Positions 5,821 through 32,357 are shown, numbered from the stretch's first letter. The stretch is DNA of 64,000 bases from Candidatus Eiseniibacteriota bacterium (GCA_963724515.1 CAVRUU010000002.1:2942-66941), one strand, 5' to 3'. Notes: generated by a model from the letters alone, not told the origin. Made by a program: numbers and translations.

Positions 5821-5854
5821 GGCGGCCCGCGTGTTCGGCGGGCCGCCTTTTTTG
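5821..5854 (+). terminator. Rho-independent terminator
   Basis: GGCGGCCCG-cgtgttc-GGCGGGCCGCC hairpin followed by TTTTTTG, starting 36 nt after the TAG at 5783-5785. Confidence 0.8.
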
Positions 5855-6634
5855 CCCGCGAACGAGCCCCAGACGCAGCGCGGTGATGGTTCCCCCGAAG
5901 GCGTAGTCGAGCCTCCCCCAAGAAACCTCCAGCCCCGCGACTCGGACCGAGAAGGCGATCCCGATCCTTCCGGGCGCCGTGCCTCGTCCGAGCCGGACCC
6001 GCGCCGCGTCCCCGAGGGGAAACTCGAGCGTCACGCGAGGGCTGTGCGTCGCGTCGGGTTCCCATCGGTCGAGGAACGCGAGCGCGGCGCCCCTCGCGCG
6101 AAACGCGGCGGCGAGCTCGAAGGCCGCCGGCACTCCGGCGCCCTCGAGCGTCCTCGTCCGGAGAATGCGATCCGCCGAGATCCAGACATCGGCGTGATCG
6201 TCCAGACTCCCGAGCGCGCGCCCGCCCAGCGCCCAACCTCCCCAGCGCTCCTCCCCGTCGGCGGAGAAGTCGAGGCGCTCAAGCTGTAGAACGAGGCGGA
6301 CGGATTTCAGGGCCCGCTCCCCGGCGGTGAGGCGCAGGGAAGCTTCCCGCGCCCCCGGCCCTGCCAGCGTGGCGTAGTTGAGCCCGATCTCACGGCCACT
6401 GGCCGAGAGCGAGAGGTCGAGCTGGGATTGAGCGAGCCCGTCGGCTCCGAACAACGAGGCGCAGCCCGCGCCCGCGCGCAGAAGCGAGACCTCTTCTCCA
6501 AATGGGAGCCAGGCTGCGTCCGTGGACACGGCTCCCAGGGCGGCGGGGCCGGCGTCTCGCAGCTCGAACGCGGCCCGCGCGGCGGCGGGCATGGCCAGAG
6601 CCCAGAGGAGCGCGATCGCGGCGGCCCTCACCAT
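5855..6634 (-). CDS. Hypothetical signal-peptide protein (beta-barrel-like); 3' end unresolved
   Basis: The ATG at 6634 overlaps the upstream stop (ATGGTGA). Signal peptide MVRAAAIALLWALAMPAAARA. This frame has no stop codon until 2777, because it runs on as the antisense shadow of 2939..5785. I therefore set the lower coordinate arbitrarily at the convergent terminator. Confidence 0.4.
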
Positions 6635-8370
6635 GGGCCCACCACGGTGAGCGCGAGGTTTCCGCTCCGCGCCGGCTCGTTGCCGTCGGGGATCGTCTCG
6701 ACCCGCACGACGTAGGTGCCGGCGGGAACCGGAGCGCCCACGTCGTCCCGGCCGTCCCAGACGAACGCCGCGTCGCCGAGCACGCGCTGGCCGTCCACGA
6801 GAAGACGCCGAGGACGGCCCAGGAGATCGTGGACGAGGACGCGGACCCGTTTTCCGCGCGATCCATCTCCGAAGGCGAACACGACGGAAGCGACAGGAGA
6901 GCCCGTGCGTCGGCGAACGACGCGGGTGCTCGCGAGGAGGAGCCCGCCGCCCGGGCCGCCCCCATGCCGCGGCGGGGCCGCGAGGGAGTTCGTCCGCCCG
7001 GGAGTGCCCGCGTGAGGATCGATCGACTCGGCCCAGGAATTCGGAGAGGCGCTTGGGAGGGCGGTCCCCAGCCGTTCGATCGACCCTCCACGCTCGGCGA
7101 AGCCGGAGCGGTACGGAACGGCGTCGCACGGCGCCCCGAGAGAGTCCACGACCCGCACGCGATCCGCGAACCCATCGTCCCGGTCGGTATCGTTCAGCGC
7201 CGGCCAGCCGCCGCGGCACCCGACGACGAGACTCTCGGGCAACGAGTAGGCGGCGCGCACGAGGTCGGGAGACTGCGCGACGACGAAGACAGAGCCGGCG
7301 CCCGCAGGCCGCGCCTCCGGTCCCCGATCGATCGGGAACGTGCGCCCTCCGGCGTCCGAGAGCGCATAGGCGCCGATGTCCAGCACCGGCTCGAGCGCGA
7401 TCAGCTCCACCCATTCCCCCGCCCCGCGATCGCGGAACGCGAACTCGTTCACGGCGAGCGGCGAGGCGGTCGATCGCGATCGGAAGAACGAAGTGTCCGC
7501 GATCGCGGAGGCGCCGTCATTCCCACCGTCCGCATCCGCCCCGGCGTCACGGAGCGCCACGCGAAGATCGAAGGGCCCGGCTGAGGGCGCCACGAACGCG
7601 CAGCGCACGCTCGCGCTCTCGCCGGGAGCGAGCGCGACTCCAGCGCACGCCGACGCCGCGGACCACTCCAGTTCCGACGCGCGGCGCATCGCGATCTCGG
7701 TCCGCCATCGGGCGGCGGGAACGCCCAGCCGGCCCCGATTCCTTACGTGCACCGAGAGGACCGCGTCCTCCCCCGGCCAGGGCACCTCCGGCTCCAACGC
7801 GGCGGTCCCGCGCGCGATCGAGAGCCCCACATCCGGACGATTCGCCCGTCCCGGCGTGGGGCCCGGGTCAGGGGCCCAGTCCGCGGTGTTCGAATCGGTA
7901 TCGCGACCATCATCGAGGCGGGCGAGGCTCGAACCCGAGGCGGCGTCCGCGGCCGGCGACCCTTCATAGAGGTCGGCCGACGCAAGCGCTCCGTAGCCCA
8001 CGAGGTCGAGCACGACCCCCGCGCGGCTCAGTCGCACGGCGTCCGGCCCGTTCTGGATCGCCGAGAGGAGCGCGCCCCCTGAGATGAGGAAGGCGTGGCG
8101 CGGCGGAATGGAGTCGCCCGCCGAGCCGGCGTAGAGGGTTTCCCAGACACCCGGACGGGCGCCATCACCCGACTCGACGAGGATTCCCGCGAGAGACACG
8201 GCGCTCGTGTCCGGATTCCACAGCTCCACGAACTCGGAGCCGTCGTCCGGACCCGCCGGGTCGTAGAGCACCTCGTTCAACAGGAGGTCGGCGCGGGCGA
8301 GGGCGGCCGGGAGGAAGAGGGCAAGGCAGATTGCGGTGAGCCACGGTGCGGCCACGAGAGCGCGGTGCAT
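6628..8370 (-). CDS. Secreted protein with two lamin-tail domains (LTD) and an FlgD-Ig-like C-terminus
   Basis: 580 aa with signal peptide MHRALVAAPWLTAICLALFLPAALARA. The LTD signature LLLNEVLYDPAGPDDGSEFVELWNP is followed by a second LTD-like segment (LAVNEFAFRDRGAGEWVELIA). The C-terminus reads VRVLVHDLLGRP...FVWDGRDDVGAPVPAGTYVVRVE. Confidence 0.85.
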   Translation of the reverse strand: MHRALVAAPWLTAICLALFLPAALARADLLLNEVLYDPAGPDDGSEFVELWNPDTSAVSLAGILVESGDGARPGVWETLYAGSAGDSIPPRHAFLISGGALLSAIQNGPDAVRLSRAGVVLDLVGYGALASADLYEGSPAADAASGSSLARLDDGRDTDSNTADWAPDPGPTPGRANRPDVGLSIARGTAALEPEVPWPGEDAVLSVHVRNRGRLGVPAARWRTEIAMRRASELEWSAASACAGVALAPGESASVRCAFVAPSAGPFDLRVALRDAGADADGGNDGASAIADTSFFRSRSTASPLAVNEFAFRDRGAGEWVELIALEPVLDIGAYALSDAGGRTFPIDRGPEARPAGAGSVFVVAQSPDLVRAAYSLPESLVVGCRGGWPALNDTDRDDGFADRVRVVDSLGAPCDAVPYRSGFAERGGSIERLGTALPSASPNSWAESIDPHAGTPGRTNSLAAPPRHGGGPGGGLLLASTRVVRRRTGSPVASVVFAFGDGSRGKRVRVLVHDLLGRPRRLLVDGQRVLGDAAFVWDGRDDVGAPVPAGTYVVRVETIPDGNEPARSGNLALTVVGPW

Positions 8371-8446
8371 GGATTCCCCCTTCTTGGGAGAGGCAAGGGG
8401 GAGAGAACGGAGACGGAAAGACGGGGCGTCTTCGAATGCGGGTCTT

Positions 8447-10612
8447 CTACAGCAAGTGGAACCTCTTTCTCAGAATCCACTCGCCGGTCGCGCCGAGCAC
8501 GAGCACGATGAAGAGCGCCGAGTTGTGGAAGAGATCCAGCTCGACCATCCGCGCCTTCGCGGTCTCGGGGGAGCGAAGCCTTGCGAGAACGGCGCCCGGC
8601 TGGTCGAGCGGGGCGGACTCGCCGCCCGATCGCGAGGCGAGCCGCTCGAGCACGGCCGGATCCGCGTTGAGCGATTCGAACTCCACGCCCTGCTCGCCCA
8701 CGGCTACACGAATGCTATCGACACCCACCAACCTTCCCGAGGCCTCCACCCGTCCCTGGAGCGAGTAGATCCCCTCGGGGAGCTGGACCAGGCCCGCGAA
8801 ATCGCTCTGGGTCGACGGTGTCATGACGGACGCGCCCGTAACACCGCGGCCGCCGATCCTACGCGCGGTCACCGTCGCGCGGGCGCCCCGCGCGAGCGAC
8901 GGGTTCGAGAGCGCGATCCGCACCGGGATCGGTCGCTCCGCCGGAGTCAGGTCGGGTGCTGAAATCCGGACCGGGCGCTCGTCCACGCTTTGCGCGAGCC
9001 ACGTCGCGAGACCGCCGAAGAACGAGGGCTCGATTCCGGAACCCCCCGAAAGACCGGAAGCCGTGAGCCCCCACCGGTACACTCCGCTCGCGGTCAACAC
9101 CGCCACGCGCCCCGCTCCGACCCTCCCCGCGAGAAGCAGCGGCGTCGGGTCCGGGCCGGTGCGGACCACGAGAAGCGGCGCCAGGGCTCCTCCACTCACT
9201 CCAAACGTCACGGGAACCTGGACGGGGGGGAGCGCGCGCCACGCGGCGGTCGCGCTCGCGGCGTCGCCGCCCAGAAGGGAGATCTCGTGCGCTCTGCCGG
9301 CAGGCGTGAGCTCGACGGCGGCTCCCAGCGCGGGGGCCCGACTCATCTCCCGCCATTCGAGCCCGAGCGCCTGCGTGAGGGGACTCGGGGCCGGCGGTCG
9401 GTTCAGCGGATCGGTCCAGAAGAGAACGCCGCCGCCACCTTCGAGAAAACGCAGGATCGCGGCACTCCGCTCGGGCGTGAGCGTGCGCGAATCATAGCGG
9501 ACCACAGCCACGTTCACGTCGAGCAACGCCTGCCCGAGCGACAGCGGATTCCCTCCAAGGGGCGCGACGGCCGACGGACCCGAGGGAACGAGCCGTTGCA
9601 CGGCCCAGGAGGTGTCCGACTCCACGCCGCGAGCGAGCGAGCGCAGATCCCAGTCCCACGCGTCTGCCAGCAGGGGCAGAACGCGCTTCGCGGGCCTCGC
9701 GGTGACGGCCACCAGACGTCTCTTGTTCTGGGTGATCCGGTCTCCGGGCAGGCTGTCCAGCCTGACCGTGAGGAAATGCTTTCCGCGCTCGCCGAGCGTG
9801 AACGGAATCACGACGCGCACCGTCGACGAGGGGTGGTCGAGCGCAAAGGACGCGCGACCCAGCTCCCGTCCACCATCGCCCAGACGGGCGACTCCGCGCG
9901 TGGCGGGGCGCGACCCGTGGCGGATGGTCACGGTGAGCACCGCGGGCTGCCCGATCACGACCTCGGCCGGAGCGTCGATTCCGCCGATTCCGGTCGTCGG
10001 GGGATCGCTCGCCACGCCCGTGACGAGCCCGAAGGCGGGCACCGCCGATTCCAGCACGCGCTCGGGATCCTCTCCCCGGTTCACGGCGCCGTCGCTCAGA
10101 ACGAGAACCGCCGCGAGCGAATCGGGATCGACGCGGTCGAGCGCCTCGCGGAGCGCATCCCCCAGCGCGGTCTCTCCGGCCCCGCGCGTGACCGTGGACT
10201 TCTTCCAAGCGCCCGGCGTCTCGATCGGCCCCAGCTTGACGTCGAACGGCGCCAGGCGCACGTCGTAGCGCCCCGAAAGCTCGCCGGCGATGGCAGCCGC
10301 CGCGCTGTCCGCGACCTCCCGGCGCGTGCGCCCCGAGCGATCCCCATCGCGCACCTCCATGCTCCCCGAGTGGTCCACGAGAATGAGGATCCGGTTTCGC
10401 TCGCGCGAGGCGGCCGAGTAGCGCAGAACGGGCGCGAGCGAGGCGAAGAGGAGCGCCAGGAGGGTGATCGTGCGCACGGCGACCAGGATCGCGCGGCGCC
10501 GCGGCGGGAGCACCGGATAGCGCGTGAGGTAGAGCGCCAGGCCGAGCGCCAAGGCTCCGAGGACGAGCACGAGCGCGATGAGATTGGGCGCGGACGACAG
10601 CGTGAAATTCAT
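8447..10612 (-). CDS. VWA-domain membrane protein (BatA-like double-TM N-terminus, C-terminal TM)
   Basis: 721 aa with two N-terminal TM helices. The VWA MIDAS-like motif is ILILVDHSGSM...VLVLSDGAVN. The C-terminal TM is FHNSALFIVLVLGATGEWILRKR. Confidence 0.85.
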   Translation of the reverse strand: MNFTLSSAPNLIALVLVLGALALGLALYLTRYPVLPPRRRAILVAVRTITLLALLFASLAPVLRYSAASRERNRILILVDHSGSMEVRDGDRSGRTRREVADSAAAAIAGELSGRYDVRLAPFDVKLGPIETPGAWKKSTVTRGAGETALGDALREALDRVDPDSLAAVLVLSDGAVNRGEDPERVLESAVPAFGLVTGVASDPPTTGIGGIDAPAEVVIGQPAVLTVTIRHGSRPATRGVARLGDGGRELGRASFALDHPSSTVRVVIPFTLGERGKHFLTVRLDSLPGDRITQNKRRLVAVTARPAKRVLPLLADAWDWDLRSLARGVESDTSWAVQRLVPSGPSAVAPLGGNPLSLGQALLDVNVAVVRYDSRTLTPERSAAILRFLEGGGGVLFWTDPLNRPPAPSPLTQALGLEWREMSRAPALGAAVELTPAGRAHEISLLGGDAASATAAWRALPPVQVPVTFGVSGGALAPLLVVRTGPDPTPLLLAGRVGAGRVAVLTASGVYRWGLTASGLSGGSGIEPSFFGGLATWLAQSVDERPVRISAPDLTPAERPIPVRIALSNPSLARGARATVTARRIGGRGVTGASVMTPSTQSDFAGLVQLPEGIYSLQGRVEASGRLVGVDSIRVAVGEQGVEFESLNADPAVLERLASRSGGESAPLDQPGAVLARLRSPETAKARMVELDLFHNSALFIVLVLGATGEWILRKRFHLL

Positions 10613-10737
10613 CGATCGGACCTCGTGCGAGAGAACACTCGCGAACGTGCTCGAATGGACGGGCGGGGACGTTTCACGGAGGCGGCTTCCAGGAGGACGC
10701 CGGGAGGTTACGGCGGCGGAACGAAACCGGTCAAGCC

Positions 10738-10775
10738 GGAAAATGAAACGCCCCGCCTCTTGGAACGAGGCGGGG
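10738..10775 (-). terminator. Rho-independent terminator after the STAS gene
   Basis: On the minus strand: CCCCGCCTC-gttccaa-GAGGCGGGG (a perfect 9-bp GC stem) followed by cgTTTCATTTTCC, beginning 24 nt after the stop at 10800. Confidence 0.7.
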
Positions 10776-10799
10776 CGCGATTCGGTTCCGTTTCGCTCG

Positions 10800-11474
10800 C
10801 TAGAATCTCGTCGTGCTTCCGGAGGCCGCGCTCGACTTGGAGTAGGCTTCGCGCCGCTCGCGCGTGTCCAGCTCGAGCTTCCGGAGGATCACGTAGAGCT
10901 GCACGGGATTCATCTCGCGGCCGCCCAGCTCGGGTCGGCGCAGCTCTTTCTGGATCCGCATGAGACCGTAGTCCGGGTGCTTGCGCGCGATTTCGCGAAC
11001 GAGGTCATCGTCCGACAGGATCGTCTCGCTCCGCCGCAGCCCGTCCTCACCCGAATCCGGGTTCGGCTGGTGCGCGGATGAGGAGGGTCCGGAGGACGGC
11101 GCCGGACTGGCGGGCACGATGGGTCCGAAAGAGGCGACGGCCAGGTCGGCGTCGGTATAGGACTGCAAGATGTTCTCGAACTCGAGCAGGTCGAAGACCT
11201 CACGCACGTCGGGCGCCATGCCCGCCAGCTTCAGGTCTCCACCATGCTCGCGGATTTCCCGGATCTCGCTGATGAAGATCCCCCATCCCGCGCTGGAGAT
11301 GTACTCGACCCGCGCAAGGTCCACCACCACGTGAAAACGCTTCTCACGGAGCAACGCCTGCAGGCGCCGTTCCAGATCCGGGCTGGTGGTGGTATCCACG
11401 TACCCGGAGACGCGCAGGATCGATACACCCCGGTTCTGTGCGGCCTCTTCGACGTAGACGTCGATACCCTTCAT
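10800..11474 (-). CDS. STAS-domain anti-sigma-factor antagonist (RsbV/SpoIIAA-like) with a ~100-aa C-terminal extension
   Basis: 224 aa. The STAS core (LRVSGYVDTTTSPDLERRL...VVVDLARVEYISSAGWG) includes the phosphorylatable Ser context. A Pro/Ser linker leads to a C-terminal segment (DDLVREIARKHPDYGLMRIQKELRR...VQLYVILRKLELDTRERR) that resembles IS3-type transposase HTH modules. The start overlaps the upstream stop (ATGA). Confidence 0.9.
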   Translation of the reverse strand: MKGIDVYVEEAAQNRGVSILRVSGYVDTTTSPDLERRLQALLREKRFHVVVDLARVEYISSAGWGIFISEIREIREHGGDLKLAGMAPDVREVFDLLEFENILQSYTDADLAVASFGPIVPASPAPSSGPSSSAHQPNPDSGEDGLRRSETILSDDDLVREIARKHPDYGLMRIQKELRRPELGGREMNPVQLYVILRKLELDTRERREAYSKSSAASGSTTRF

Positions 11475-13933
11475 TCTCCCCCTCCTTGTCCTTCTGGGGC
11501 ACGGTCGGCTCGGGCGGTCGAAGACAGCGCCTGCGCCAGCCTTGCCATACGTCTATCGGTCCCGTTTTGGGCGAACTCAAGCCTTTTTTCCCGCGTGTTA
11601 AGCCCGTTCTTCTTTAGAGTTAGGTAGACCGTGGCCGGGGTCAAACCAGGCCCCGCCTTGCGGGTCGCGATGAGCAGCTCCGCGACTCGCTTCGCGCCCA
11701 GAAGAGGCTCGGCTTTCACGACCGCCAGGATCGCGGCTTCCTCCTCGAGGCTCGCCCGCGCGAGCCCGGCCCGCGGCCGGAGGCTCTTCAGCCCCTCCTC
11801 GCCTCCAACCTCGGCGACGCGGCGGCGGTAGCGGTAGTAGGTCGACGGCGCGATCTGCAGCTGCTCGCATGCTTCCCCGACCGGCATTCCCTCCTGCTCG
11901 ACGAGCCGGAAGAGCTCGCGCCGCTTCGACTCGATCCTCACCTCCGGCTGCACCTTCTCCTTGATCGCCACGAGCGTGATGTCGTCGTTCTGGAGCGCGC
12001 CGGCGGTGAATTCGTGGATTTCCCGATCGAGCGCCTCGGTGAATTCCTGGGCGGTCAGGTGGCCGTACTTCTTGATCGCCGCGAGGAGCCTGCCCTCCCC
12101 GAACTGCTCCCGCGAGGGATTCATGGCCTCGGTGATGCCGTCCGTGTAGATGACGAGCATGTCCTCCTGCTTGAGCGTGAGCTTCTCGACCGAGATGGTG
12201 CGCCGGAAGAGATCGGCGTCCGGCGCGTCGATCCCGACCGGGATTCCCTTCGGCTTCAGGAAGTAGGTCGCGTCCGATTCCCCCCGATAGAGGATCATCG
12301 GATTGTGCCCCGCGCTCGCGTAGCTCACGACGCGGTTCACCGAGTCGAGCACGACGTAGAACATCGTCACGAACATCCCCTTTTTCATGTCCTCGGTGAC
12401 GAAGGTGTTCATCCGGGCCATCACGTCGGACGCGGAGCGGTTCCCGCGCGCCTCCATCCGGAGCGCGGTCCGGATCATCGTCATGACCAGGGAGCCGGGG
12501 ACGCCCTTGCCCGACACGTCCGCGACCACGACGCCGATCGTGCGCTCGTCGACCTGGACGAAGTCGTAGTAGTCCCCTCCCACTTCCTTGGCGGCACGGT
12601 AGAGCGCGCCGATCTCGTAGCCCTCCAGCTCGGGGACATTGCGCGGAAGGAGGCTCTGCTGGATCTCCTGCGCGACCTGCATCTCCTTCTGGAGCCGTTC
12701 CTGCTCGACCAGATTCCCCTGAGCCGCCCGGAACTTGGCCGTGATCTCGTTGAACGCGCGGGCGATCTCGTCGATCTCCTCGTTACCCGACCCGCCGACG
12801 TCGGCCATCATCGTTCCCTCGCCGATCGCCCGCACGCTGTCGGAGAGGACCTGGATCGGCCGCACGAAGATCCCGATGAGGATCATCGAGAGGACGCAGC
12901 CGAGGAACAGGATGAGGAGCGCGATCCCCGCCAGCTCGGCGCGCGCCGCCCCGATCCGCGCCCCGATCGCGTGCTCGCTGATCCCGATCTGCACATATCC
13001 GAGCACGGTGGCGAGGGCCTTTCCCATCGTGCCGGCCCGCACCGGCTCGACGATCGTCCCGACGCCGTTGCTCACAAGGTAGGCCGGGGGCGCCCACTGG
13101 CCGCCGAGACCCGCGCCCGATCCGGACTTGAGCCCGCTTCGCTCGGTGGTGAAGAGCTCCTCGAACCGGTTGCTGCCCCACACGCGGCCCGCGGTGTCGA
13201 GCACCCGCGCCGAGACGTAGTCCGGATTCGCCTTGAGCGCGGCGCGAATCGACTGGTTCAGGAGTGTCTGCTCGATCGACATCGGCTCGGGCCGCGAGAG
13301 AACGTCCGCCGCCGGAATCGCGAGCCCGCGCGCGACGCTCCGCGCATGCAACAGGGTCTCCGCCCGGATGCTCTGCATCTGGCGTGCGTGGATGGCCGTG
13401 AAGGCGACCGCCACGAGGAAGGTCATCGCGCCGAACGCCTGAAGGGTGTACGTGAAGCGGAGCGAGCGCGGCCGCGTGCTGCCGCCGGCCCGGCGGCGCC
13501 GCCGGCCGAGGCGCTTCGACATCGTGAGGGCGTTGCCGTCGGCGCTCCCCCGGTAGCGCACCTCGTCCATGAGCTGATTCATGAGGAAGACGCCGAGTCC
13601 GCCGCGCTTTCGGGTCTCGACGTACATCTTGAGGTCCGGGCTCTTGACGTTCCTGAGGTCGAAGCTCTCGCCCTGGTCCCGGATCTCGATCGAGAACTCG
13701 CGCTGGTTTCCGGTCACGACGACTTCGATGAAGCCGCTCCGCCCCTTGTAACCGTGCTTCACGACGTTCGTGCAGGCTTCGTCGACCGCCAGCTTCGTGT
13801 TGGCGAGAACCTTCCCCGGGATCTGGATCTTCTCGCCGACCTCCTGGATGAAGTCGCGGATCTCGGCGAGATGCCGGTCCTCGGCCGGAACGCGGAGCTG
13901 GAAGCGGCGGGTCGGTCCCGCCTTCCGGATCAT
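11471..13933 (-). CDS. Multidomain partner-switching regulator: RsbW/SpoIIAB-like kinase, 2 TM with an extracytoplasmic loop, HAMP, PP2C (SpoIIE) phosphatase and an HTH
   Basis: 820 aa.
- N-terminal HATPase_c_2-like region: LAVDEACTNVVKHGY...GGLGVFLMNQLMDEV.
- Two hydrophobic helices.
- HAMP: RPIQVLSDSVRAIGEG...IDEIARAFNEITAKF.
- PP2C: AQEIQQSLLP...GGDYYDF...DVSGKGVPGSLVM...YTDGITEA.
- C-terminal HTH: ACEQLQIAPSTYYRYRRR...GAKRVAELL...TVYLTLKKNGL. Confidence 0.9.
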   Translation of the reverse strand: MIRKAGPTRRFQLRVPAEDRHLAEIRDFIQEVGEKIQIPGKVLANTKLAVDEACTNVVKHGYKGRSGFIEVVVTGNQREFSIEIRDQGESFDLRNVKSPDLKMYVETRKRGGLGVFLMNQLMDEVRYRGSADGNALTMSKRLGRRRRRAGGSTRPRSLRFTYTLQAFGAMTFLVAVAFTAIHARQMQSIRAETLLHARSVARGLAIPAADVLSRPEPMSIEQTLLNQSIRAALKANPDYVSARVLDTAGRVWGSNRFEELFTTERSGLKSGSGAGLGGQWAPPAYLVSNGVGTIVEPVRAGTMGKALATVLGYVQIGISEHAIGARIGAARAELAGIALLILFLGCVLSMILIGIFVRPIQVLSDSVRAIGEGTMMADVGGSGNEEIDEIARAFNEITAKFRAAQGNLVEQERLQKEMQVAQEIQQSLLPRNVPELEGYEIGALYRAAKEVGGDYYDFVQVDERTIGVVVADVSGKGVPGSLVMTMIRTALRMEARGNRSASDVMARMNTFVTEDMKKGMFVTMFYVVLDSVNRVVSYASAGHNPMILYRGESDATYFLKPKGIPVGIDAPDADLFRRTISVEKLTLKQEDMLVIYTDGITEAMNPSREQFGEGRLLAAIKKYGHLTAQEFTEALDREIHEFTAGALQNDDITLVAIKEKVQPEVRIESKRRELFRLVEQEGMPVGEACEQLQIAPSTYYRYRRRVAEVGGEEGLKSLRPRAGLARASLEEEAAILAVVKAEPLLGAKRVAELLIATRKAGPGLTPATVYLTLKKNGLNTREKRLEFAQNGTDRRMARLAQALSSTARADRAPEGQGGGE

Positions 13934-13967
13934 GGGCGGACCTCGTAGGCGGTCTCGGCGTGGGCCC

Positions 13968-15911: not shown

Positions 15912-18900
15912 CGCAGCACTCCCACCTTGATGCGCTCGCTCACGCCGGGTCCGTCGATTCGCGCGACGTAGACACCCGGCCGGACCAGTTCCCCGTTCCC
16001 GTTTCGCCCGTCCCAGGGAACCTCGTTCAGGCCGCTCGTCCCGCCGCGCCCTCCTGGGGCGAGCGACATCTCGCGCACGAGATCCCCGAGCAGCGTGTAG
16101 ATGGACACTTTCACGGCGGCGTCCTGACCCAGCACGTAGGAGAGCAAGCAGGCCTCGTTCCCCGCGTGGAACGGGTTCGGGTAGCCGTGGGGCCGCCCGA
16201 AAAACGTGATGTCGCGCGACGTCAGAACGCTGAAGGGAAGCCCGCCGCCGCCCACGACGGGGACGCTGCCTCCGGTGACAACATCGACGGCGAAGACGTC
16301 GGTCGCCTGCGCCAGCGCGAACGCGACGCGCTGCGCCGCCGTCCCCGCCCGGAACGTCGCCTCGACGAAGAGCGATTCCGGAGCGTTCCCCATGGCGAGC
16401 GGGGGGCTGACCGTGAGGACGACCGGATTGGGGGCGCCCGGAGCCGGCGCGCTCTGCGCGAGAAGGGTGCCCGCCGCGTCGCGTAGGGCGATCGAGGCGA
16501 TCGAAGAGGCGGGCGCCGTTCCGGCCGTGCCGTCCGAGAGGACGGTGACGGCGATCGACTGGAGAGAATCGCCGGTGGAGCTGCCGGCCACGGCCAGCGG
16601 CATCAGCTCGATCCCCCAGACCCGCACCGGCGCTCCCCCCGCCGCCACCTGCAACGGCGGGGACGTATCGATCGCGCGCACCTGGATCGCGGCGAGGGCT
16701 TGGAGCACGATGAACTCGCTGTCCGAGGAACCGACCGAGGCGCTTCCCGGAAGGCCCCACTCGGTTCCCTGGAGCGCGAGGTCCACGCGGTACGGCTGGC
16801 TCGCCATCGACGCGGGAATCGTCACGCCCGGGAAGCGGAGCGTGGCCGTGGCGCCCAGCCCCAGCGTGAAGGCGCCGCCCGTGCCGAGGCCGGTCATGAC
16901 GTCGACACCGTCGGTGAGGGTGAGCCTGGATGCGGACGGATCGAGCACGAACGGCGATCCGCCTCCGTTCCGCACGTCGAGCGTGACGTCGGTCGTCTGA
17001 CCGGGACGTGCCTGGCTCGGCGCGGTGGAGCGCGCCACGTACTGGAGCGCGGCCGGCTGCATCGCGTGGAGCGTGTCCGCGGTCAGGCTCTGCGCGCGCA
17101 CGACACCGTCCTCGAGCCCGAAGACATCGAGCGTGGCCGCGGCGTCTCCCGGCGAGGCCGGCGAGCCGAGCGCCCCGCCGGAGAAGCTCAGGACGAGCGA
17201 CTGGCCCGCGCCCACCGTGAGGGCCGCTCCCAGGGTCCGCGTGACGGCGACCGGCGGGCCGAGCTCGAGCGCCGTCGCCGGATCGAGGGCGAAGGACACA
17301 TCGCCCAGATTCTGAAGCGTTATCGAGAGGGGACGCGATTGCCCCGCGCTCACCGTTCCCGGGCTGAGCGAGCCGGCTGTCGCGGCGAGGAGCGCGGGAT
17401 CGAGGACGTCGACGCTGTCGGGCGCGAACGGGATCGTGTCGGTGAACGCCTGCCCTGCTTCGATTCCGTCGACGTACAGAAGCGCCGGGTATCGTCCCTT
17501 GGAGACGCTCCCCGGCACCGCGAGCGAATCGAACGCGAGGGTCGCCTGGTCGGACGCCGCGACCGCGGTGTTGGCCGAAAGCGCCGTGACGAGCGTGGTC
17601 CCGCCGAGATCGATGACGAGCCTCGTCGTTCCCCGCTGGAGCGTCGCGCTCGCGGCGCCCGTGTTCGCGACGCGCACCGTCGGGGCCGATGTCCTCCCGC
17701 GGAGGAATCGCTGCGGCGTGCCCGTGCCAGCGACCGCGACGATCGCCGCGCCCGAGACGACGCGGAAGCCGAGCGGCGTCACGCTGGACGCGACGACGGG
17801 GTTCCCACCGAACGTGACCGTCGCCTGAAGCGTCGCGTCGACGGTCGTCCCCGACGGGATCCCGCTCGACGGGACCTGCGCGGGGAACGTGAAGCGCGTG
17901 GTTGCCCCGGCGGGGATCGCGGTCCCGAGCGGCGGTGTCGGCGCCCCGGTGATGAAAGCGCCCGTCGAATACCCCACGCTCGCGCCCGAGAGATTCCCCG
18001 CGGTGCCGGAGATGTTCGAGACGTCGAACACGAGGGAGACCGTCTGGCCGAGCGAAACCGGATCGGGAGAGGCGCTCACGGCCGTCACGCCGATCCCGCC
18101 GACGCTCACCTGGGCTCCGGCGAGGCTCGGATAGAAATCGAACGAAGCGCCGGTCGCGTCGGTCCCGAAGGCGCGAAAGCTCGGTGCGTAGGAGCCTGGG
18201 GCGAGCGCGGCCGGAACCGTTGCCGCGGCGAACGCCAGGGTCGCGGTGGCCCCGGCTCCGATGGTGGCGGTCGAGGCGAGGGTCGCGGAGAACGCCGTCG
18301 CGCCGGCGCCGAATGAGAAGATCGAGCCCGCACCGACCTGGATCGTGCCCGTTCCCGTGTTTCGCGCCTGGAGCGAGAAGGCGGCGCTTCCACCAGGGAC
18401 GACCGCTCCCGGCGCAAGAGAACCCGCCACGTACGCGAGCGACGGAGGCGGCACGTACGTGAATGCGTGCGATCCGGCGCCACTGCCCGCGCGCGAGACG
18501 GCCAAGAGCGTGTCGAGACCCGCCGTGGAAGGCGCGATGAGAACGACCGAGGCTTTGCTGTCGGCTCCGGTCGCGAGATCGAGCCCCGGATAGGCGGCGC
18601 TCGCGTCGGAGGCGATGAGGGTCCCGGCTTGCGCGCTCACGCCGATGAGGATCCCGGCCCCGACGAGATTCCCGAACGTGTCCCTTACGGGACCGAGGGT
18701 GATCGTCGAGGCGCTTCGTCCATCCGCGGTCAGGCTGTCGCGCGTCGCGGAGGTCGCGATCGCGCCCCCGGGAGCCGCGGGGGTCACCGTCGCGTTCCCG
18801 CCCGCGCCGCTGCCTCCGCCCGCGCGGTCCGCGCCGATCGCCACCGACTCGACGAGCGTGTCGCGGCCCATCGTCACGAACGCTCCCGCCGAAAGGGCGC

Positions 18901-21900
18901 CCGAGACCGGCGTCCACGTGACGGCGCCCGAGGGGCGCATCGTCACCAATGCGGTGTCAGCCGTCACGAGGTTCCCGAACGCATCGACGGCCTGCACGCT
19001 GACGCTCTCCGGAACGCCCGCGGTCCACGCGAGCGAGGCGGCCGTCACCCGGAGCGCGGCCGTCGGCCCCGGGTACGTTGCCGCGCGGATTCCGACCGCG
19101 CTCAGCGATCCCCCGCTGACGAAGACCGAATCCGCCGCGGGCGCCGCGCTGGGGGCGCGGTAACGCACCGCGAGCCGGCCCGAGGAGTTCGTGATCCCAC
19201 TCTGCGATCCGGGCCCGCCCGACGTGCCGCCGATCGACTCGAGCGATCCCACGGCACTCGGCCCGCCCAGGTAGAACGTGATCGCGTGACCCTGGATCGG
19301 GTTCCCCTGCGGATCGAGCACCGTGACCGTCACGTTTCTCCCCTGCGTGGGCGTCAGGGAGAGCGAGTCGGGAGCGAGCGTCAGGCTCGCGGCGCCGGCC
19401 GGATTCACCGCGACCGGCCCGTAGGTGACCGTGGGGCGCGCGCCGTCGCTCACCTGGATCGTGAGGGGGCTCGCCTGGGTTGGGGTTACCGGGATCGGGG
19501 CGGTGCCTCCGCTCAACGCCACGGAGCCGGGCACGGTCGCGGCGCCGGACGTCACGGTGGGCGTGAGCAGCTCGCCGCTCTCGCCCGGAAGAGGGTTTCC
19601 GAACGAGTCGAACGCGTCGACGGTGAGCGTGACACCCGTGCCCGCCGTGAGGGGCCCCGCGGGACCTGAGATCGTGTAGTGGTCGATGGCGCCCGGCTGG
19701 TAGAGGATCGCGGGCTCGACCAAGAGCGGCACGCCGCTCGCGATCACGTGCACGACGCCGGTGTCGGCGACGGTCGCCGTCGCGCGGAAGTCGAGGCTGC
19801 CGCCGGCGTCCGTCGCGGATCCGAGCGCCGTCACGGTCGCCGAAACGCCGGCCACCGTGACCGCGATCGATGCAGCCGGAATGCCGGGCAGCGGATGATC
19901 CTGGCTGTCGCGGAGCGTGACCTGGACGATGCTGCCCGTGGCGCCGACCGGGGCCGGCGACCCCGCGCTGACACCGGAGCGCCCCGCGCTCACGCTCCCC
20001 GGGACGAGGCGGACGCTCACGGAGCCGGCCGAGGTGGTGTCGCGCACCGCCCGCGCGGTGACCACCGCCGTGGCCAGCACGTCGCCGCCGAAGAGCGTGC
20101 ACGTGATGGCTCCCCCCGACGCGGAGACCTGAACCCCGGGGGTCGATGGGTCGGCGTCGGCGGTCACGATCGAGCCGGCCGAGGCGGCGACCGTGTACTT
20201 CTCGCCGTTTTCGACCTGGTTTCCGTTCGCGTCGTGAAGGCCGCTCGCGCCGATCGTGAGCGTCGCGACGCTGTCGGCGGCGAGCGAATCGGCCGCGGCC
20301 CCGAGCGCGATCGATGCAGCCGGAATGCCGGCGAGGAGTCGGACCGCGGCCGTGGCGCTCGCCGGGCCGCCGCCTCCCACGCGCTCCGCCGTCACCGTGG
20401 CCGTTCCCGGGCCCGCCACGACGCCTGCGCGCACGCTGCCGCCGACGGCCCCCGTGGAATCCGCGAGGAGCTGCGCGCCAGGCGCGCCCGGATCCTGATC
20501 GGTGACCGGCGAGACGAGTGTCCCCGCCAGCGTGAACCGCTCGCCGGCCGCCACGGCGTTCCCGTATGCGTCGACCGCCGTCCCCGAGACGAGCACCGAA
20601 TCCACGGAGTTTGCGATCACGGTGTCGGGCGATGCGAACAGCACCATCAGGGCCGGCACGTTCGGGACCGTGTACACCGGCGCCCCTGCCGTGCCCAGGA
20701 AGGGCGACACGCCGTTCGCGTCGATCGCGCGGATGCGACCCTCCGACGTCGTGGTCCGGGTGTCGGTGAACTTGAAGCGCGCGGAATCGGCGCCCGCCGG
20801 GACCGTGATCTCGAAGATCGCGCTCGTGCCCGCGACGCTCCGGAACGTGCCGTTCGAACGGTCGGTCCACAAGGTCAGGGTCTCCGGAGCAAGGGCCGGC
20901 GCCGGGTTCCCGAAGGCGTCGAAGACCCGCACGGTGACCGTGTCCGGCACTCCCGCCGTGAGACGGAGCGTGTCGGGCGCGAGCACCATGTGATCGGGAC
21001 CGGCCGGAGAGACATCGAGGCGATGACGCCCGGACGTAAATCCCATGGCTGAGTCGCTTACGGCGAGCCAGAAGGCGCCCGCGCGGCGCGCCGTCAACGA
21101 CCCCGCGTACGTGCCGCCTGCGAGCGCGGCCAGGTCGCTGACGAGCTCCGGGTCGGCGGCCGCGGCGCCCACCGAGTCCGCGAACGCCACGAACCGCAAC
21201 GCCGCCACGGAGCCCGGCCCGTCCGTGATCGTGTTCCCGTCCGCGTCGCGCGAGCGCGCGGTGACCGCGAACGGAGCGCCCGCGGTCGCGGAGCCGGCGG
21301 CCGTCATCGCGAGCCCGGCGTACGCGCCGTGGAGGACCGTGATGACCCCCGTCGAGTCCGTCCACACGCCCGCGCTGTCCGCGTAGGCCTTGCCGGTGCC
21401 CGGAACGTCGAGCCGGAGGGCGGTGGCCGAGCCGTTCGCCGGCACGGGAGCGCCGATCCCACCCGACAGCGTCCAATCACAGCGAATCAGGAGGCCCGGG
21501 TTTCCGTAGGAGTCGTAGCCACGGAGGAAGAGCTGAGTCGTGTCCTGGTCGGTCGTGCGCGTGAGCGCGTCGACCGGCGCGCCCGAGCCGTCCACGAGAT
21601 CAACGGAGACCACGGCCCCTGCTTTGACGGCCAGCTGGACCGATGTGGAAACTTCCGCCGGCGACCCGGTGAATTGTGGGTCGCTCAGGACCTGGAACAC
21701 GACGGTGTCGGGCGCGATCGTCTGCACTCGCGCGGAAGCGGACCCGCCCCCCGCGCCGTAGACGATTCCGAACGAGTCCCCGCTCAGGAACCGCGTCGCG
21801 CTCGAGAAGTGAGGCGCCCCGCCGAGGTAGACGCGAACGGTCTGACCCGAGACCGAAATCGAATCGACCCTGACGTCGGTGGACGCGACGTACCCCGCCG

Positions 21901-22219
21901 CGGTGGAATCCGTGGTCTGCGGCGGACTCCATCCGGTCGGAATCACGGCCTCGATGAATCCGCCGGTCACGGCATCGAAGTCCTCTCCGGCGGTGTAGGT
22001 GATCGTCCACGTGCCGGGCGCGCCGGCCACCACGGTGTCGGGAGGCGTGATGAAAGCGGTCCCCGATCCCGCGCCCGCGAGAGCGGACGTTGCGAGCAGG
22101 CAGCAGGCGCACGCGACCCCGAGCGCGACGAGGATCGAGCGCCACGTCGCGCGCGCGCGCGAGCGCCCGCGCTTCGGGAACGCACGCGGCTTTCGGTTCC
22201 GGAGTGGTTGCTGCGGCAT
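15908..22219 (-). CDS. Giant surface adhesin-like protein (Big/invasin-type Ig repeats, CARDB-like repeats, FlgD-Ig/T9SS-like CTD)
   Basis: 2103 aa with a signal peptide (...LVALGVACACCLLATSALAGA).
- About 9 Ig-like modules with the recurring motif (V/A)xDA(F/Y)GNP/GNxV, e.g. VRVFDAFGNPAP, TAVDAYGNAVAAG, VDAFDSFGNPLPG, VLDPQGNPIQG, VQAVDAFGNLV.
- About 7 CARDB-like modules in the C-terminal half.
- CTD: GYPNPFHAGNEACLLSYVL...VKVSIYTLLGDLVREM...WDGRNGNGELVRPGVYVARI. Confidence 0.92.
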   Translation of the reverse strand: MPQQPLRNRKPRAFPKRGRSRARATWRSILVALGVACACCLLATSALAGAGSGTAFITPPDTVVAGAPGTWTITYTAGEDFDAVTGGFIEAVIPTGWSPPQTTDSTAAGYVASTDVRVDSISVSGQTVRVYLGGAPHFSSATRFLSGDSFGIVYGAGGGSASARVQTIAPDTVVFQVLSDPQFTGSPAEVSTSVQLAVKAGAVVSVDLVDGSGAPVDALTRTTDQDTTQLFLRGYDSYGNPGLLIRCDWTLSGGIGAPVPANGSATALRLDVPGTGKAYADSAGVWTDSTGVITVLHGAYAGLAMTAAGSATAGAPFAVTARSRDADGNTITDGPGSVAALRFVAFADSVGAAAADPELVSDLAALAGGTYAGSLTARRAGAFWLAVSDSAMGFTSGRHRLDVSPAGPDHMVLAPDTLRLTAGVPDTVTVRVFDAFGNPAPALAPETLTLWTDRSNGTFRSVAGTSAIFEITVPAGADSARFKFTDTRTTTSEGRIRAIDANGVSPFLGTAGAPVYTVPNVPALMVLFASPDTVIANSVDSVLVSGTAVDAYGNAVAAGERFTLAGTLVSPVTDQDPGAPGAQLLADSTGAVGGSVRAGVVAGPGTATVTAERVGGGGPASATAAVRLLAGIPAASIALGAAADSLAADSVATLTIGASGLHDANGNQVENGEKYTVAASAGSIVTADADPSTPGVQVSASGGAITCTLFGGDVLATAVVTARAVRDTTSAGSVSVRLVPGSVSAGRSGVSAGSPAPVGATGSIVQVTLRDSQDHPLPGIPAASIAVTVAGVSATVTALGSATDAGGSLDFRATATVADTGVVHVIASGVPLLVEPAILYQPGAIDHYTISGPAGPLTAGTGVTLTVDAFDSFGNPLPGESGELLTPTVTSGAATVPGSVALSGGTAPIPVTPTQASPLTIQVSDGARPTVTYGPVAVNPAGAASLTLAPDSLSLTPTQGRNVTVTVLDPQGNPIQGHAITFYLGGPSAVGSLESIGGTSGGPGSQSGITNSSGRLAVRYRAPSAAPAADSVFVSGGSLSAVGIRAATYPGPTAALRVTAASLAWTAGVPESVSVQAVDAFGNLVTADTALVTMRPSGAVTWTPVSGALSAGAFVTMGRDTLVESVAIGADRAGGGSGAGGNATVTPAAPGGAIATSATRDSLTADGRSASTITLGPVRDTFGNLVGAGILIGVSAQAGTLIASDASAAYPGLDLATGADSKASVVLIAPSTAGLDTLLAVSRAGSGAGSHAFTYVPPPSLAYVAGSLAPGAVVPGGSAAFSLQARNTGTGTIQVGAGSIFSFGAGATAFSATLASTATIGAGATATLAFAAATVPAALAPGSYAPSFRAFGTDATGASFDFYPSLAGAQVSVGGIGVTAVSASPDPVSLGQTVSLVFDVSNISGTAGNLSGASVGYSTGAFITGAPTPPLGTAIPAGATTRFTFPAQVPSSGIPSGTTVDATLQATVTFGGNPVVASSVTPLGFRVVSGAAIVAVAGTGTPQRFLRGRTSAPTVRVANTGAASATLQRGTTRLVIDLGGTTLVTALSANTAVAASDQATLAFDSLAVPGSVSKGRYPALLYVDGIEAGQAFTDTIPFAPDSVDVLDPALLAATAGSLSPGTVSAGQSRPLSITLQNLGDVSFALDPATALELGPPVAVTRTLGAALTVGAGQSLVLSFSGGALGSPASPGDAAATLDVFGLEDGVVRAQSLTADTLHAMQPAALQYVARSTAPSQARPGQTTDVTLDVRNGGGSPFVLDPSASRLTLTDGVDVMTGLGTGGAFTLGLGATATLRFPGVTIPASMASQPYRVDLALQGTEWGLPGSASVGSSDSEFIVLQALAAIQVRAIDTSPPLQVAAGGAPVRVWGIELMPLAVAGSSTGDSLQSIAVTVLSDGTAGTAPASSIASIALRDAAGTLLAQSAPAPGAPNPVVLTVSPPLAMGNAPESLFVEATFRAGTAAQRVAFALAQATDVFAVDVVTGGSVPVVGGGGLPFSVLTSRDITFFGRPHGYPNPFHAGNEACLLSYVLGQDAAVKVSIYTLLGDLVREMSLAPGGRGGTSGLNEVPWDGRNGNGELVRPGVYVARIDGPGVSERIKVGVLR

Positions 22220-22538
22220 GTGCCTCGGGTCGATGGGAGGTCTCGCTGCGCTCCTCCATTGAATCGCAGCGACTTAGCAGACATGCGGACCGCAAGAGGC
22301 ATGCCACGGAGCGCCGCCGGGCGGGCCTCGCGGCGCGCGAGGAAGCGGCTCGACGACACGACCTTGCAAACGCACGAAGAGCCGGGGGTTCCGGGGCGGC
22401 CGGAGGGGTGTCCGGAACCATGCAGAATGCAATTCGACGTCGAAAATGCGGTCCTGGAGCGGCTGGAATTGGGCGGGCGGCCGAGAGTTGGCCAGGGGGG
22501 GTCTGGGGGTGCTTACGTGGGGCCCAGCGTGGCTCGCG

Positions 22539-23474
22539 CTACCTTGGCCGGCGAATCTCTCCCACGACCTTGGCGGAAAGCTCCGGGCGCTCCGTCACCT
22601 CGACGATCTCCGGCCCATCGGTCCGGTTCGCGAGGCCGATGAACACCACCTGGATGATCGTTGCGAGTCCCATCACGGCGAGCCCGACGTCGAACACTTC
22701 CTTGAGGCTCTGCCGCGTCGCCTCGCTCCAGGACGAGAGCCCGAGGAGCAGGAGCCCCAGCAAGAGCGTCGTCAGGAACCCGGTCAGCTTCCCGAACAGG
22801 GTCGGCCGGATCCGCACGGGACCATGGAAGAAATAGAGGTACACCGTTCCGCCGACGAGCAGCGCGTAGCGCGCGAGCATGAGCGCCGTCACCCACCACG
22901 GCACGACGCGCGCCACGAGCAGTGCCACGAACACCGCCGAATTGAACGCGACGTCGGTCAGCGGATCGAGGAGCGCGCCGACGCGTGTCTCTGCGCGAAG
23001 CGCGCGGGCGAGGACGCCGTCCAGCACGTCGGTGAACGCGCTCGCGGCGAAGAGCCAGACGACCGCGGCCCAGCGCTCCTCGTGGATCAGGATCACGATC
23101 GCCGGGATCGAGACGAAGCGAAGCATCGTGATGGCGATCGGGAGCGGCATCCGGATCACGAGCTGCGCGTCCCGGGAGCCGAGCAGGAGCCCCACGTGCG
23201 TGAGCACCCAGAAGGAGAGGAACAGGAGCATCAGGCTCGACGCGAGGAGGTAGCTCGAGCCGGCCGAGCGACCCACGTGAACCGAGAGGAGGAGCGCCGC
23301 CATGAACTGGAGCGCGAACAATCCGAGCGCCAACGTCGCGATGAGACGCACCAGCTCCGGATGCTGGGGAAGGCCGCGCGAGACACGAACGGCGCTCACG
23401 CGCACGAACCGCCAGATCGCGCTCAGCGTGTATCCCTCTTGGCGGATCTCTTCGAACAGGTCCGGGCGCGGCAT
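22539..23474 (-). CDS. CDP-alcohol phosphatidyltransferase family membrane protein
   Basis: Trimmed to the ATG at 23474 (MPRPDLFEEI...), 311 aa, polytopic. The family motif D-x2-DG-x2-AR...G-x3-D-x3-D appears as FTDVLDGVLARALRAETRVGALLDPLTDV. Confidence 0.85.
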   Translation of the reverse strand: MPRPDLFEEIRQEGYTLSAIWRFVRVSAVRVSRGLPQHPELVRLIATLALGLFALQFMAALLLSVHVGRSAGSSYLLASSLMLLFLSFWVLTHVGLLLGSRDAQLVIRMPLPIAITMLRFVSIPAIVILIHEERWAAVVWLFAASAFTDVLDGVLARALRAETRVGALLDPLTDVAFNSAVFVALLVARVVPWWVTALMLARYALLVGGTVYLYFFHGPVRIRPTLFGKLTGFLTTLLLGLLLLGLSSWSEATRQSLKEVFDVGLAVMGLATIIQVVFIGLANRTDGPEIVEVTERPELSAKVVGEIRRPR

Positions 23475-23506
23475 GGCGCTACGGTAGGATTTTCGACCGC
23501 GGCTGT

Positions 23507-32187: not shown

Positions 32188-32357
32188 CTATCAAGTAATT
32201 TGATGACGTTCACTCTTCCCATTGTGAGACCACACTTCAATTTAGCTCGGCCAGAATCACGATGACTAAGGAGGTGATCGGGCTCGGAGTATTGTGATCC
32301 TTATCCTCTTGAGGGTGTCTTCTCGCTTTTACCTGCGTTAGAGAGGAGATGAATGGA

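Follow-up and report, generated by a model that had tools for sequence, protein, structure and literature searches.

The DNA analysed here is a 64-kb window (the whole stretch, CAVRUU010000002.1:2942-66941 of assembly GCA_963724515.1, from a Candidatus Eiseniibacteriota bacterium), in which we studied a 16-kb cluster of seven envelope genes, called A to G below; all positions are counted from the first letter of the window. Its G+C content is about 68% and long spurious open reading frames (ORFs) are frequent. The seven minus-strand ORFs A-G are genuine and present the expected bias in G+C at the third codon position (GC3). They comprise gene A (15908-22219, 2103 amino acids), gene B (13968-15911, 647 amino acids), gene C (11471-13933, 820 amino acids), gene D (10800-11474, 224 amino acids), gene E (8447-10612, 721 amino acids), gene F (6628-8370, 580 amino acids) and gene G, which starts at 6634 and whose conserved part spans 5861-6634, with no stop codon there. 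A and B overlap by 4 nt in an ATGA (15908-15911), as do C and D (11471-11474), while F and G overlap by 7 nt in ATGGTGA (6628-6634) and a gap of 34 nt (13934-13967) separates B from C. A first reading of this DNA, made by a model from the nucleotides alone (the sequence-only reading), had noticed seven same-strand genes with tight junctions, and the ORF and junction check bears it out. We read the 16 kb as two adjacent operons, A-B-C-D (unit 1) and E-F-G (unit 2).

Genes A and B

The giant protein encoded by gene A has a signal-peptide-like N-terminus (hydrophobic residues 29-47). The Ig-like family Big_1 matches it in four stretches, at 36.7 bits for a cut-off of 34.9, and passes only when the N-terminal 1000 amino acids are scanned alone. 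No CARDB match was obtained in A itself with hidden Markov models (HMMs), and faint precomputed CARDB matches were seen only on distant homologues of A. Of the Ig/CARDB repeats that had been attributed to this protein, the Ig-like half thus stands, whereas the CARDB half is left without HMM support. The C-terminal domain (CTD) of A, encoded at 15911-16180 on the minus strand and running from YPNPFHAGNE to KVGVLR, is of the T9SS (type IX secretion system)/FlgD_ig type. It aligns with the CTDs of three other proteins of the window that pass the curated thresholds, with which it has in common PNPF, a W-x-G motif and a K-x-x-x-x-[KR] end. A may act as an adhesin, as was first proposed.

We also considered whether A could be a PorU-like sortase. 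Neither Peptidase_C25 nor the PorU N-terminal domain was matched in A, and only the CTD aligns to the PorU model; this candidate was rejected for want of a C25 domain. A canonical sortase-shuttle pair, in contrast to A-B, is found at L038:4884-10885, in a Calditrichaceae metagenome-assembled genome (MAG). There, the gene of a 1664-amino-acid PorU2-like protein (Peptidase_C25, 288 bits) overlaps the gene of a PorV2-like barrel (336 amino acids), and an SLBB polysaccharide-export-like gene follows.

AlphaFold models B (pLDDT 79) as a barrel (residues ~95-323, nt 14943-15629, minus strand), then long helices and hairpins resembling tetratricopeptide repeats (TPRs), which make up a tail of about 320 amino acids (nt 13971-14931, minus strand). 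The model's top two matches in the Protein Data Bank are 8gl6_F (E = 9e-9) and 6h3i_F (E = 2e-7), with TM-scores of 0.53-0.57 on the target, better than FadL and OmpG; in both entries chain F is PorV, from SprA-PorV complexes. A sequence-profile search of solved structures with B returned TPR matches only, TPR_2 passes its curated threshold (27.5 bits), and no PorP/SprF match was obtained. A family member 29% identical to B (P0255) is labelled "PorV/PorQ family protein" by NCBI. Exhaustive searching with the B barrel gave 2576 cluster representatives at E <= 0.001. Among the best 149 relatives, about 70 have 540-720 amino acids, an N-terminal barrel and, at the end of the tail, one common TPR motif (Y..G...F..G.Y..AI..W..VL...P.N), and those of this architecture that bear a source name are annotated just as "TPR repeat protein". 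The TPR end is the most conserved part of B.

Genes C and D

According to Pfam, NCBIfam and the prediction of transmembrane segments, C consists of an RsbW-type serine kinase (residues 15-140), a transmembrane segment (163-181), an extracytoplasmic domain, a second transmembrane segment (339-357), a HAMP domain, a PP2C phosphatase (463-658) and a transposase-type helix-turn-helix (HTH) region (668-795), all encoded on the minus strand. SpoIIE (169.4 bits), HATPase_c_2 (108.3 bits) and HAMP (25.8 bits) score above threshold, the NCBIfam RsbW model gives 80 bits, and the NCBIfam SiaA model matches residues 334-657, i.e. the second transmembrane segment, HAMP and PP2C. Between the two transmembrane segments lies a loop of 157 residues with a weak match to sCache_3_2 (single-Cache). 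Orthologues that share 40-72% identity with the window protein all keep the kinase and phosphatase motifs unchanged, and conservation within C is lowest in the extracytoplasmic loop.

D is a STAS protein of the anti-sigma-antagonist type (STAS 68.4 bits; TIGR00377 63.2 bits for a cut-off of 53.45) with a weak C-terminal HTH_21-like domain. It carries the serine motif YISSAGWGIF, also present in its homologues at loci L039 and L040, and read by eye the serine of YISSAGWG is what we take to be the counterpart of the SpoIIAA/RsbV phosphoserine. The C-terminal region of C (11549-11729, residues ~735-795) is homologous to the tail of D (10830-11024, residues ~150-215), and both resemble the N-terminal DNA-binding region of IS481/IS3/IS630 transposases. 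These tails look like a domesticated transposase HTH that would serve the signalling pair, and their likeness suggests either DNA binding or contact between both tails. The transmembrane kinase/phosphatase-STAS module of the sequence-only reading was therefore upheld by domains that pass their thresholds, with the precision that its kinase is an RsbW-type serine kinase, as in partner switching. C as a histidine-kinase sensor was corrected on the same Pfam and NCBIfam matches, since the serine kinase is fused to PP2C and has a STAS partner.

The architecture of this pair varies among relatives. Some distant C homologues reach 1100-1350 amino acids, in which the HTH region gives way to an extended acidic linker of low complexity and then to a TPR module at the C-terminus (loci L074, L076, L079-L084, L091, L108, L109, L112, L114, L115, L118 and L119). 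In three loci (L040:14624-21827, L088 and L090), a gene for a ParA/MinD-like ATPase stands between C and D. In cassettes of the L040 and L090 type, D is followed by genes for a GGDEF diguanylate cyclase and Wzz-type chain-length/tyrosine-kinase-like proteins, and L040 additionally has a Wza-type polysaccharide-export gene. By analogy, this GGDEF/Wzz neighbourhood of D may recall SiaABCD and syp-type regulation.

Conservation of the cluster

Homologues of B and E form more than 130 clusters at 50-86% identity, the named ones being mostly Candidatus Eisenbacteria MAGs. A scan with one genome per species gave 35 loci, 34 of them orthologous to B. The order glycosyltransferase, multihaem cytochrome, CDP-alcohol phosphatidyltransferase, A-B-C-D-E-F-G is kept wherever the Eisenbacteria contig reaches, and the synteny check proved positive, all seven genes being ordered alike in every Eisenbacteria locus that is long enough. 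Over 33 Eisenbacteria-level loci, the A/B junction has a median of -4 nt, C and D overlap by 4 nt (32 of 33) except in one locus, which has a 14-nt overlap, the F/G junction is mostly -4 nt, and D and E are always spaced (median 166 nt). B/C junctions range from -4 to +43 nt across loci. Since the unrelated flanking genes are equally syntenic, local order alone is no proof of shared function.

A metagenome scan anchored on C gave 80 loci with a full-length C at 38-91% identity, C being 38-52% identical over its full length in about 60 of them. The 51 metagenome loci in which C is less than 46% identical (the distant set) were scored with custom-built HMMs. In this set, B adjoins C upstream in 48 of 49 loci, an A-type CTD lies directly upstream of B (29/29) and D is found within 3 kb (32/34); E is present in none of 32 and F in none of 27. 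The contigs have 36-61% G+C, and the module is co-inherited even where B is 24-33% and C 38-44% identical. E and F are seen again solely in L122 and in relatives whose C is at least 47% identical. Because they are absent from the distant loci, the conserved module is one of four genes, A-D, and not of seven. The neighbourhood check that uses the PorV-TPR (B) and kinase-PP2C (C) proteins as anchors thus came out in favour of the A-B-C-D linkage, which held in the distant loci.

With B as the anchor, every contig that reaches far enough 5' has a giant protein before B (five of the seven look-ups; L039, L040, L041, L122, L123 and L124), usually with a 4-nt overlap, and a truncated CTD-bearing protein does so at P0248; the P0306 contig is uninformative on the gene upstream of B. 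A C-like gene follows B in all four B-anchored contigs long enough to judge. The A homologues upstream of B in distant loci have from 1400 to more than 2800 amino acids. The canonical PNPFNP occurs in just 2 of the 46 CTDs that adjoin B in these loci, and a CTD variant next to B that mostly lacks PNPFNP fits a cognate pairing of A with B. Moreover, the switch is rearranged in L124 (8173-10842), where one protein is made of sCache, HAMP and PP2C and the next joins an RsbW-like kinase to STAS, the two being directly downstream of a giant protein and a barrel-TPR protein. Such a locus, which keeps the parts and changes the fusions, is a classical sign that the domains work together. Beyond D, the distant loci carry genes for aconitase, GltX, Obg, DprA, ThiI, DUF456 with DUF4159, or a patatin-Omp85 protein; no common output gene was found 3' of D in them, where mostly unrelated housekeeping genes stand.

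Promoters and terminators

On the minus strand, 72 nt 5' of the start codon of A, lies a sigma-54-type -24/-12 promoter, TGGCATGCCTCTTGC (22292-22306), which matches the textbook sigma-54 element. Under the criterion used (TGGCAC-N5-TTGC at a fixed place 5' of the first gene), it is the sole match across the 64 kb, for a chance expectation of 0.12. The site is kept in 12 of the 13 Eisenbacteria spacers that separate the upstream gene from A, and of the 11 loci where A is complete, 7 have a relaxed form 5' of the A-like gene, with very distant loci among them. Unit 1 is predicted to be driven by this sigma-54-type promoter. About 115 nt farther upstream, a conserved element, TTGCATTCTGCA (22421-22432, minus strand), was found, and a TTGCA..TGCA(A)-type element takes the equivalent spacer position in 12 other Eisenbacteria loci. 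Two conserved elements, this TTGCA..TGCA and GCGTTTGCAA, thus lie 5' of the sigma-54 site within 22361-22432 (minus strand), and may be candidate sites for an enhancer-binding protein; no sigma-54 activator gene was found near the cassette.

Unit A-D ends in an intrinsic-terminator-like hairpin with a T-rich tail (10738-10778, minus strand); the hairpin (10778-10748) has 12 pairs, 10 of them G-C, and its tail is TTCATTTTCC. A sigma-70-like promoter of E-F-G, TTGACC-18 nt-TAACCT, was recognized by locus comparison at 10705-10734 on the minus strand. A strict sigma-70 consensus scan gave no promoter, the TTGACC element being visible only when loci are compared. Indeed, TTGAC and then a TAnC(G)T-like element occur in 28 of 29 D-E spacers, 108-170 nt 5' of E. 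Most D-E spacers also hold a strong hairpin, which some lineages place downstream of the -35 box and not before it. That a terminator divides the region into two units, as had been noticed at the outset, was supported in this way, unit 2 having a conserved promoter-like site of its own.

Genes E and F

E has two N-terminal transmembrane segments, a domain resembling von Willebrand factor A (VWA) and a C-terminal transmembrane segment. Its VWA matches fall below the cut-offs (VWA_2 19.5 vs 27, VWA_CoxE 21.4 vs 26.4), some of its homologues have VWA_2, VWA_CoxE or DUF4350 matches, and a sequence-profile search of solved structures found no relative. The residues of the metal ion-dependent adhesion site (MIDAS; D-x-S-x-S...T...D), namely D80, S82, S84, T148 and D174, are invariant in 53 homologues. 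Neither the BatA N-terminal family nor any NCBIfam model matched E, and no MoxR or DUF58 gene lies nearby, the neighbours being F and G. The "BatA-like VWA" name given to E earlier can therefore be kept for VWA, on its invariant MIDAS though not on an HMM threshold, and not for BatA, which no HMM matched.

F is a secreted protein with one lamin-tail domain (PF00932, residues 25-127, 42.4 bits vs 34.3) and a divergent FlgD_ig-type CTD (25.6 bits vs 27), in whose alignment PNPF is missing. An LTD-like NEF..EWVEL motif is visible by eye in residues 290-450, and this region scanned alone gave no Pfam match at E <= 1. Of the two lamin-tail domains that had been described in F, the first passes its HMM cut-off and the second is without HMM support. 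In L067 (18391-18747), where C is 52% identical, the ORF that follows the F homologue matches positions 171-299 of the B barrel profile, and not the G profile.

Discussion

Taken together, our results lead us to favour, with moderate confidence, the reading that A-D combine a cargo-and-barrel pair of T9SS-like kind with a partner switch resembling SypE/SypA, E-F-G being a separate operon. From gene structure, folds, domain content, promoter-like elements and co-inheritance, we infer a secretion route, the binding of A by B, the signal to C and the output of D as follows. A would be exported by Sec and taken to the surface by its T9SS-type CTD. B, translationally coupled to A, would receive and hold it through this CTD by means of its PorV-fold barrel, with the long helical/TPR tail in the periplasm. 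C would be an inner-membrane sensor whose own RsbW-type kinase and PP2C are balanced against each other by the Cache-like domain and HAMP. The target of both enzymes would be the conserved serine of D, the STAS protein, whose phosphorylation state would set a cytoplasmic output. In this lineage, the output would probably pass through the transposase-derived HTH-like tails of C and D, and in some relatives probably via the neighbouring diguanylate cyclase and polysaccharide-export genes. Operon 2 would provide the VWA membrane protein E and the CTD-bearing lamin-tail protein F, translationally coupled to the small barrel G. To judge from the loci compared, E-F-G is an envelope unit limited to this lineage and its nearer relatives; its F-G coupling echoes the A-B logic, though G is a generic barrel. 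The self-contained surface module with its own signalling that was initially proposed is thus retained for the four genes A-D and not for seven, E and F being absent from distant loci, and the signalling module might also exert the feedback regulation suggested for it.

Several observations weigh against the cargo-barrel and partner-switch reading. None of the T9SS core genes (SprA/Sov, PorK/L/M/N, PorU) was found within the 64-kb window. The T9SS route is assumed because many CTD-bearing proteins, at least five, are encoded there. Three of the latter are large secreted proteins (2939-5785 and 32355-34322 on the plus strand, 39328-42957 on the minus strand) whose FlgD_ig/Por_Secre_tail domains score above curated thresholds, so that CTD-dependent export seems heavily used by this organism. 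The CTD of A itself is below its curated cut-offs (TIGR04183 19.3 vs 23, FlgD_ig 21.9-23.2 vs 27); the T9SS-like CTD assigned to A from the outset fails these thresholds, whereas its alignment with the passing CTDs of the window argues for it. Similarly, B scores 53.6 bits with PorV_fam (NCBIfam NF033709, E = 2.5e-14) for a cut-off of 90, over profile positions 21-180 of 326 only. The PorV-like barrel fused to TPRs is consequently kept as a fold, by the model, and for its passing TPR_2 match, but because the curated score is missed B is not strictly classed in the PorV family. Binding of A by B and sensing of the A/B state by C are steps that we infer. Moreover, conservation is low in the C loop and high at the tail end of B, which disfavours a simple contact between the two. 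The TPR motif of the long distant C proteins, at their cytoplasmic end, resembles the conserved TPR end of B, and it may therefore bind a partner other than the C loop. On the output side, there is no sigma factor gene in the cluster or its conserved flanks, nor any other obvious target of D nearby. In addition, the HTH tails are absent from the D of L122 and from L124, so that DNA binding cannot be the universal output.

The same four genes might also be read as an outside-in device, in which A and B, instead of being a displayed cargo and its anchor, would form the outer portion of a trans-envelope sensor. The state of A (bound, pulled, cleaved or missing) would be relayed via the barrel and TPR tail to C, and then to D. 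The inheritance of the four genes as one block in very distant lineages, the long periplasmic tail that B always has, with its strongly conserved end, the extracytoplasmic and HAMP domains of C and the tight B/C junctions (-4 to +43 nt) would all agree with such a device. We nevertheless consider it unlikely, because the C loop is poorly conserved while the B tail is highly conserved, and the similar TPR module at the cytoplasmic end of distant C may bind something other than the C loop. If it were so, A-B-C-D would be an undescribed trans-envelope surface-sensing pathway, leading from an antenna (A) held in a barrel, through a TPR tail, to a Cache/HAMP sensor, a STAS serine phospho-switch and an output; this proposal is tentative and rather doubtful. 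To the same low degree we would expect the output of the pathway to be transcription via the domesticated transposase HTH, and c-di-GMP (cyclic diguanylate) or polysaccharide elsewhere. Were the sensing pathway real, T9SS-type surface display would be joined directly to partner-switching signalling.

It is quite improbable, in our opinion, that these are core secretion genes, with B as a general PorV-type shuttle for all CTD proteins and A as part of the attachment complex, on the model of porU-porV operons, i.e. housekeeping genes merely beside a regulator. The Calditrichaceae locus L038, which pairs a C25-peptidase PorU2-like protein with an overlapping PorV2-like barrel, would be in line with this, as would the good conservation of B and the at least five CTD-bearing proteins of the window. 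However, neither Peptidase_C25 nor the PorU N-terminal domain matches A, most CTDs beside B lack PNPFNP (all but 2 of 46), B is below the PorV-family cut-off and has a 320-aa tail that PorV lacks, and the tight C/D linkage is not a feature of known porU-porV loci. Finally, the seven genes could be neighbours only through a well-preserved gene order in the lineage, which we regard as very improbable. Unrelated flanks are ordered too, with the glycosyltransferase, multihaem cytochrome and CDP-alcohol phosphatidyltransferase upstream, and downstream a convergent CTD protein or an aminotransferase that also keeps its position, and E-F-G has its own promoter and is absent from the distant cassettes. 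For A-D, by contrast, synteny alone is excluded by co-inheritance at 24-44% identity and 36-61% G+C among otherwise unrelated neighbours, as well as by the reshuffled domain fusions of L124. The link of A-D with E-F-G is fairly described as synteny without shared function.

The reading of A-D as a cargo-barrel pair with a partner switch can be compared with known systems. PorV with type A cargo, PorQ with PorZ and PorP/SprF with type B cargo are the known cargo-barrel parallels. In the T9SS it is an established principle that a cargo has a barrel of its own in the outer membrane, as shuttle or anchor, for instance SprB/SprF and PG1035/PorP (PMC9143113, PMC12618676). Cognate T9SS shuttles have been described (PMC12618676), and the PorE-PorP-PG1035 complex associates a barrel, a periplasmic TPR-containing protein and a cargo (PMC9143113). 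Genes A and B resemble such pairs, since the gene of a very large CTD protein lies directly upstream of an outer-membrane barrel gene and the B model is closest to PorV (6H3I, 8GL6). In contrast to these pairs, B is fused to a 320-aa helical/TPR tail and is below the PorV-family cut-off, the host is outside Bacteroidota, and A-B are always tied to a partner-switching module; unlike the type B pairs of the SprB/SprF kind, A has a CTD nearer to type A/FlgD_ig than to type B.

As for the switch, SypE combines a kinase and PP2C in one protein that acts on the STAS protein SypA (PMC3610818, PMC4517449), and controls with it a cell-surface or biofilm trait in Vibrio fischeri (PMC3610818, PMC4517449, PMC10120452). 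Likewise, C has an RsbW-like serine kinase and PP2C, with D as a predicted single-STAS-domain substrate. However, SypE is cytoplasmic with a central receiver, whereas C is membrane-embedded, has an extracytoplasmic domain and HAMP there, and ends in an HTH region; D differs from SypA by its extra HTH_21-like tail. SiaABCD of Pseudomonas aeruginosa comprises a kinase, a phosphatase and a phosphorylated switch protein (PMC7647112). C shares with it the transmembrane-HAMP-PP2C part, and in L040 and L090 a GGDEF protein comes right after D, but C unites kinase and phosphatase in one chain, SiaC does not belong to the canonical STAS proteins, and there is no diguanylate cyclase in the window. The RsbU/RsbV/RsbW and SpoIIE/SpoIIAA/SpoIIAB systems use the same three domain families and a conserved phosphorylatable serine; in contrast to them, the cassette has no sigma factor, and the kinase of C is membrane-tethered and in the same chain as the phosphatase. 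In the second operon, E is like the Bat (Bacteroides aerotolerance) VWA proteins in having two N-terminal membrane segments and then a VWA domain with MIDAS, whereas it is without a BatA N-terminal family match and MoxR/DUF58 partners, which makes the resemblance a loose one.

In the literature searched, we found no published description of a T9SS-type cargo-barrel pair and a partner switch as one inherited unit, nor anything relevant on a T9SS in Eisenbacteria. The sequence-only reading had not recognised the combination as a described system, which agrees with this result as far as the whole is concerned and not for the cargo with its own barrel, already a T9SS principle. Cargo with a cognate barrel and fused kinase-phosphatase partner switches are already known. 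What seems new, as far as this literature shows, is their obligatory linkage in one cassette predicted to be sigma-54-driven. On the same footing, the barrel-TPR fusion, the membrane-embedded kinase/HAMP/PP2C/HTH architecture and the STAS-HTH protein also appear to be new. Cargo-barrel pair and partner switch are linked in every informative case, over dozens of uncultivated lineages and contigs of 36-72% G+C, and the carriers of the cassette come from soils, sediments and other habitats. Thus, if the linkage is functional, it is a candidate for how non-Bacteroidota couple a giant surface protein to intracellular signalling, and the four genes can serve as markers for finding the system in metagenomes.

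Gene G and flanking genes

Upstream of A, on the minus strand, lie genes for a CDP-alcohol phosphatidyltransferase, a multihaem c-type cytochrome, a family-2 glycosyltransferase and pyruvate phosphate dikinase (22542-25470 and 25464-29033). In L039 and L122, pyruvate phosphate dikinase directly or almost directly adjoins the giant gene. A scan of 2500-25000 against Rfam gave no match to an RNA family.

The N-terminus of G is signal-like, with a conserved A-x-A before AFELRD in 17 homologues. Its model, built from only 7 sequences, is a 14-strand barrel (pLDDT 64.6, pTM 0.64) whose best structural matches are to OmpG (TM-score 0.57-0.62). The signal-peptide, barrel-like protein announced for this position is therefore confirmed with moderate confidence as a 14-strand outer-membrane barrel model. 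A sequence-profile search of solved structures with G gave no match. That G is a small PorV-like paralogue of B was unsupported, the profile-profile probability being 0.3% and PorV lying outside the top 50 structural matches.

G had been said to end at 5855, which does not hold: the codon there is GGG in the frame of G, no in-frame stop is present, and the frame is open to 2777. It runs through a hairpin (5847-5821) and then antisense to the convergent gene 2939-5785, and the GC3 coding signal of G fades near 5860. The hairpin, GGCGGCCCGC-N7-GCGGGCCGCC (5821-5847), has its T run on the plus strand and is the terminator of this convergent gene. This lack of a stop, with the frame of G passing through the convergent terminator, recurs in each of the 10 related genome loci where the convergent CTD gene is present and in 3 metagenome loci (in all, L006, L007, L010, L011, L015, L016, L018, L021, L023, L037, L049, L053 and L063). 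Between the conserved GRLD motif and the convergent gene's stop lie 126, 132, 135 or 141 nt, invariably multiples of three and in the codon phase of the antisense gene. We could therefore reject an assembly error as the origin of the missing stop, since the same open frame recurs in the 10 genome and 3 metagenome loci and the spacer is always a multiple of three. The stop-less G may correspond to a non-stop message, to a translated tail or to chance in a stop-poor genome, and is a small puzzle on translation termination at convergent genes in high-GC genomes. G has only 6 matches in the protein database, probably because gene callers skip it.

Where the convergent gene is missing, the stop of G mostly lies 6-10 codons past the last strand. 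In two of the loci that lack this gene (L001:20121-21626 and L003:20325-21722), G is followed by a protein of 465-500 amino acids without Pfam match, and in L027 (19049-21382) a downstream protein of this type is fused in frame with G.

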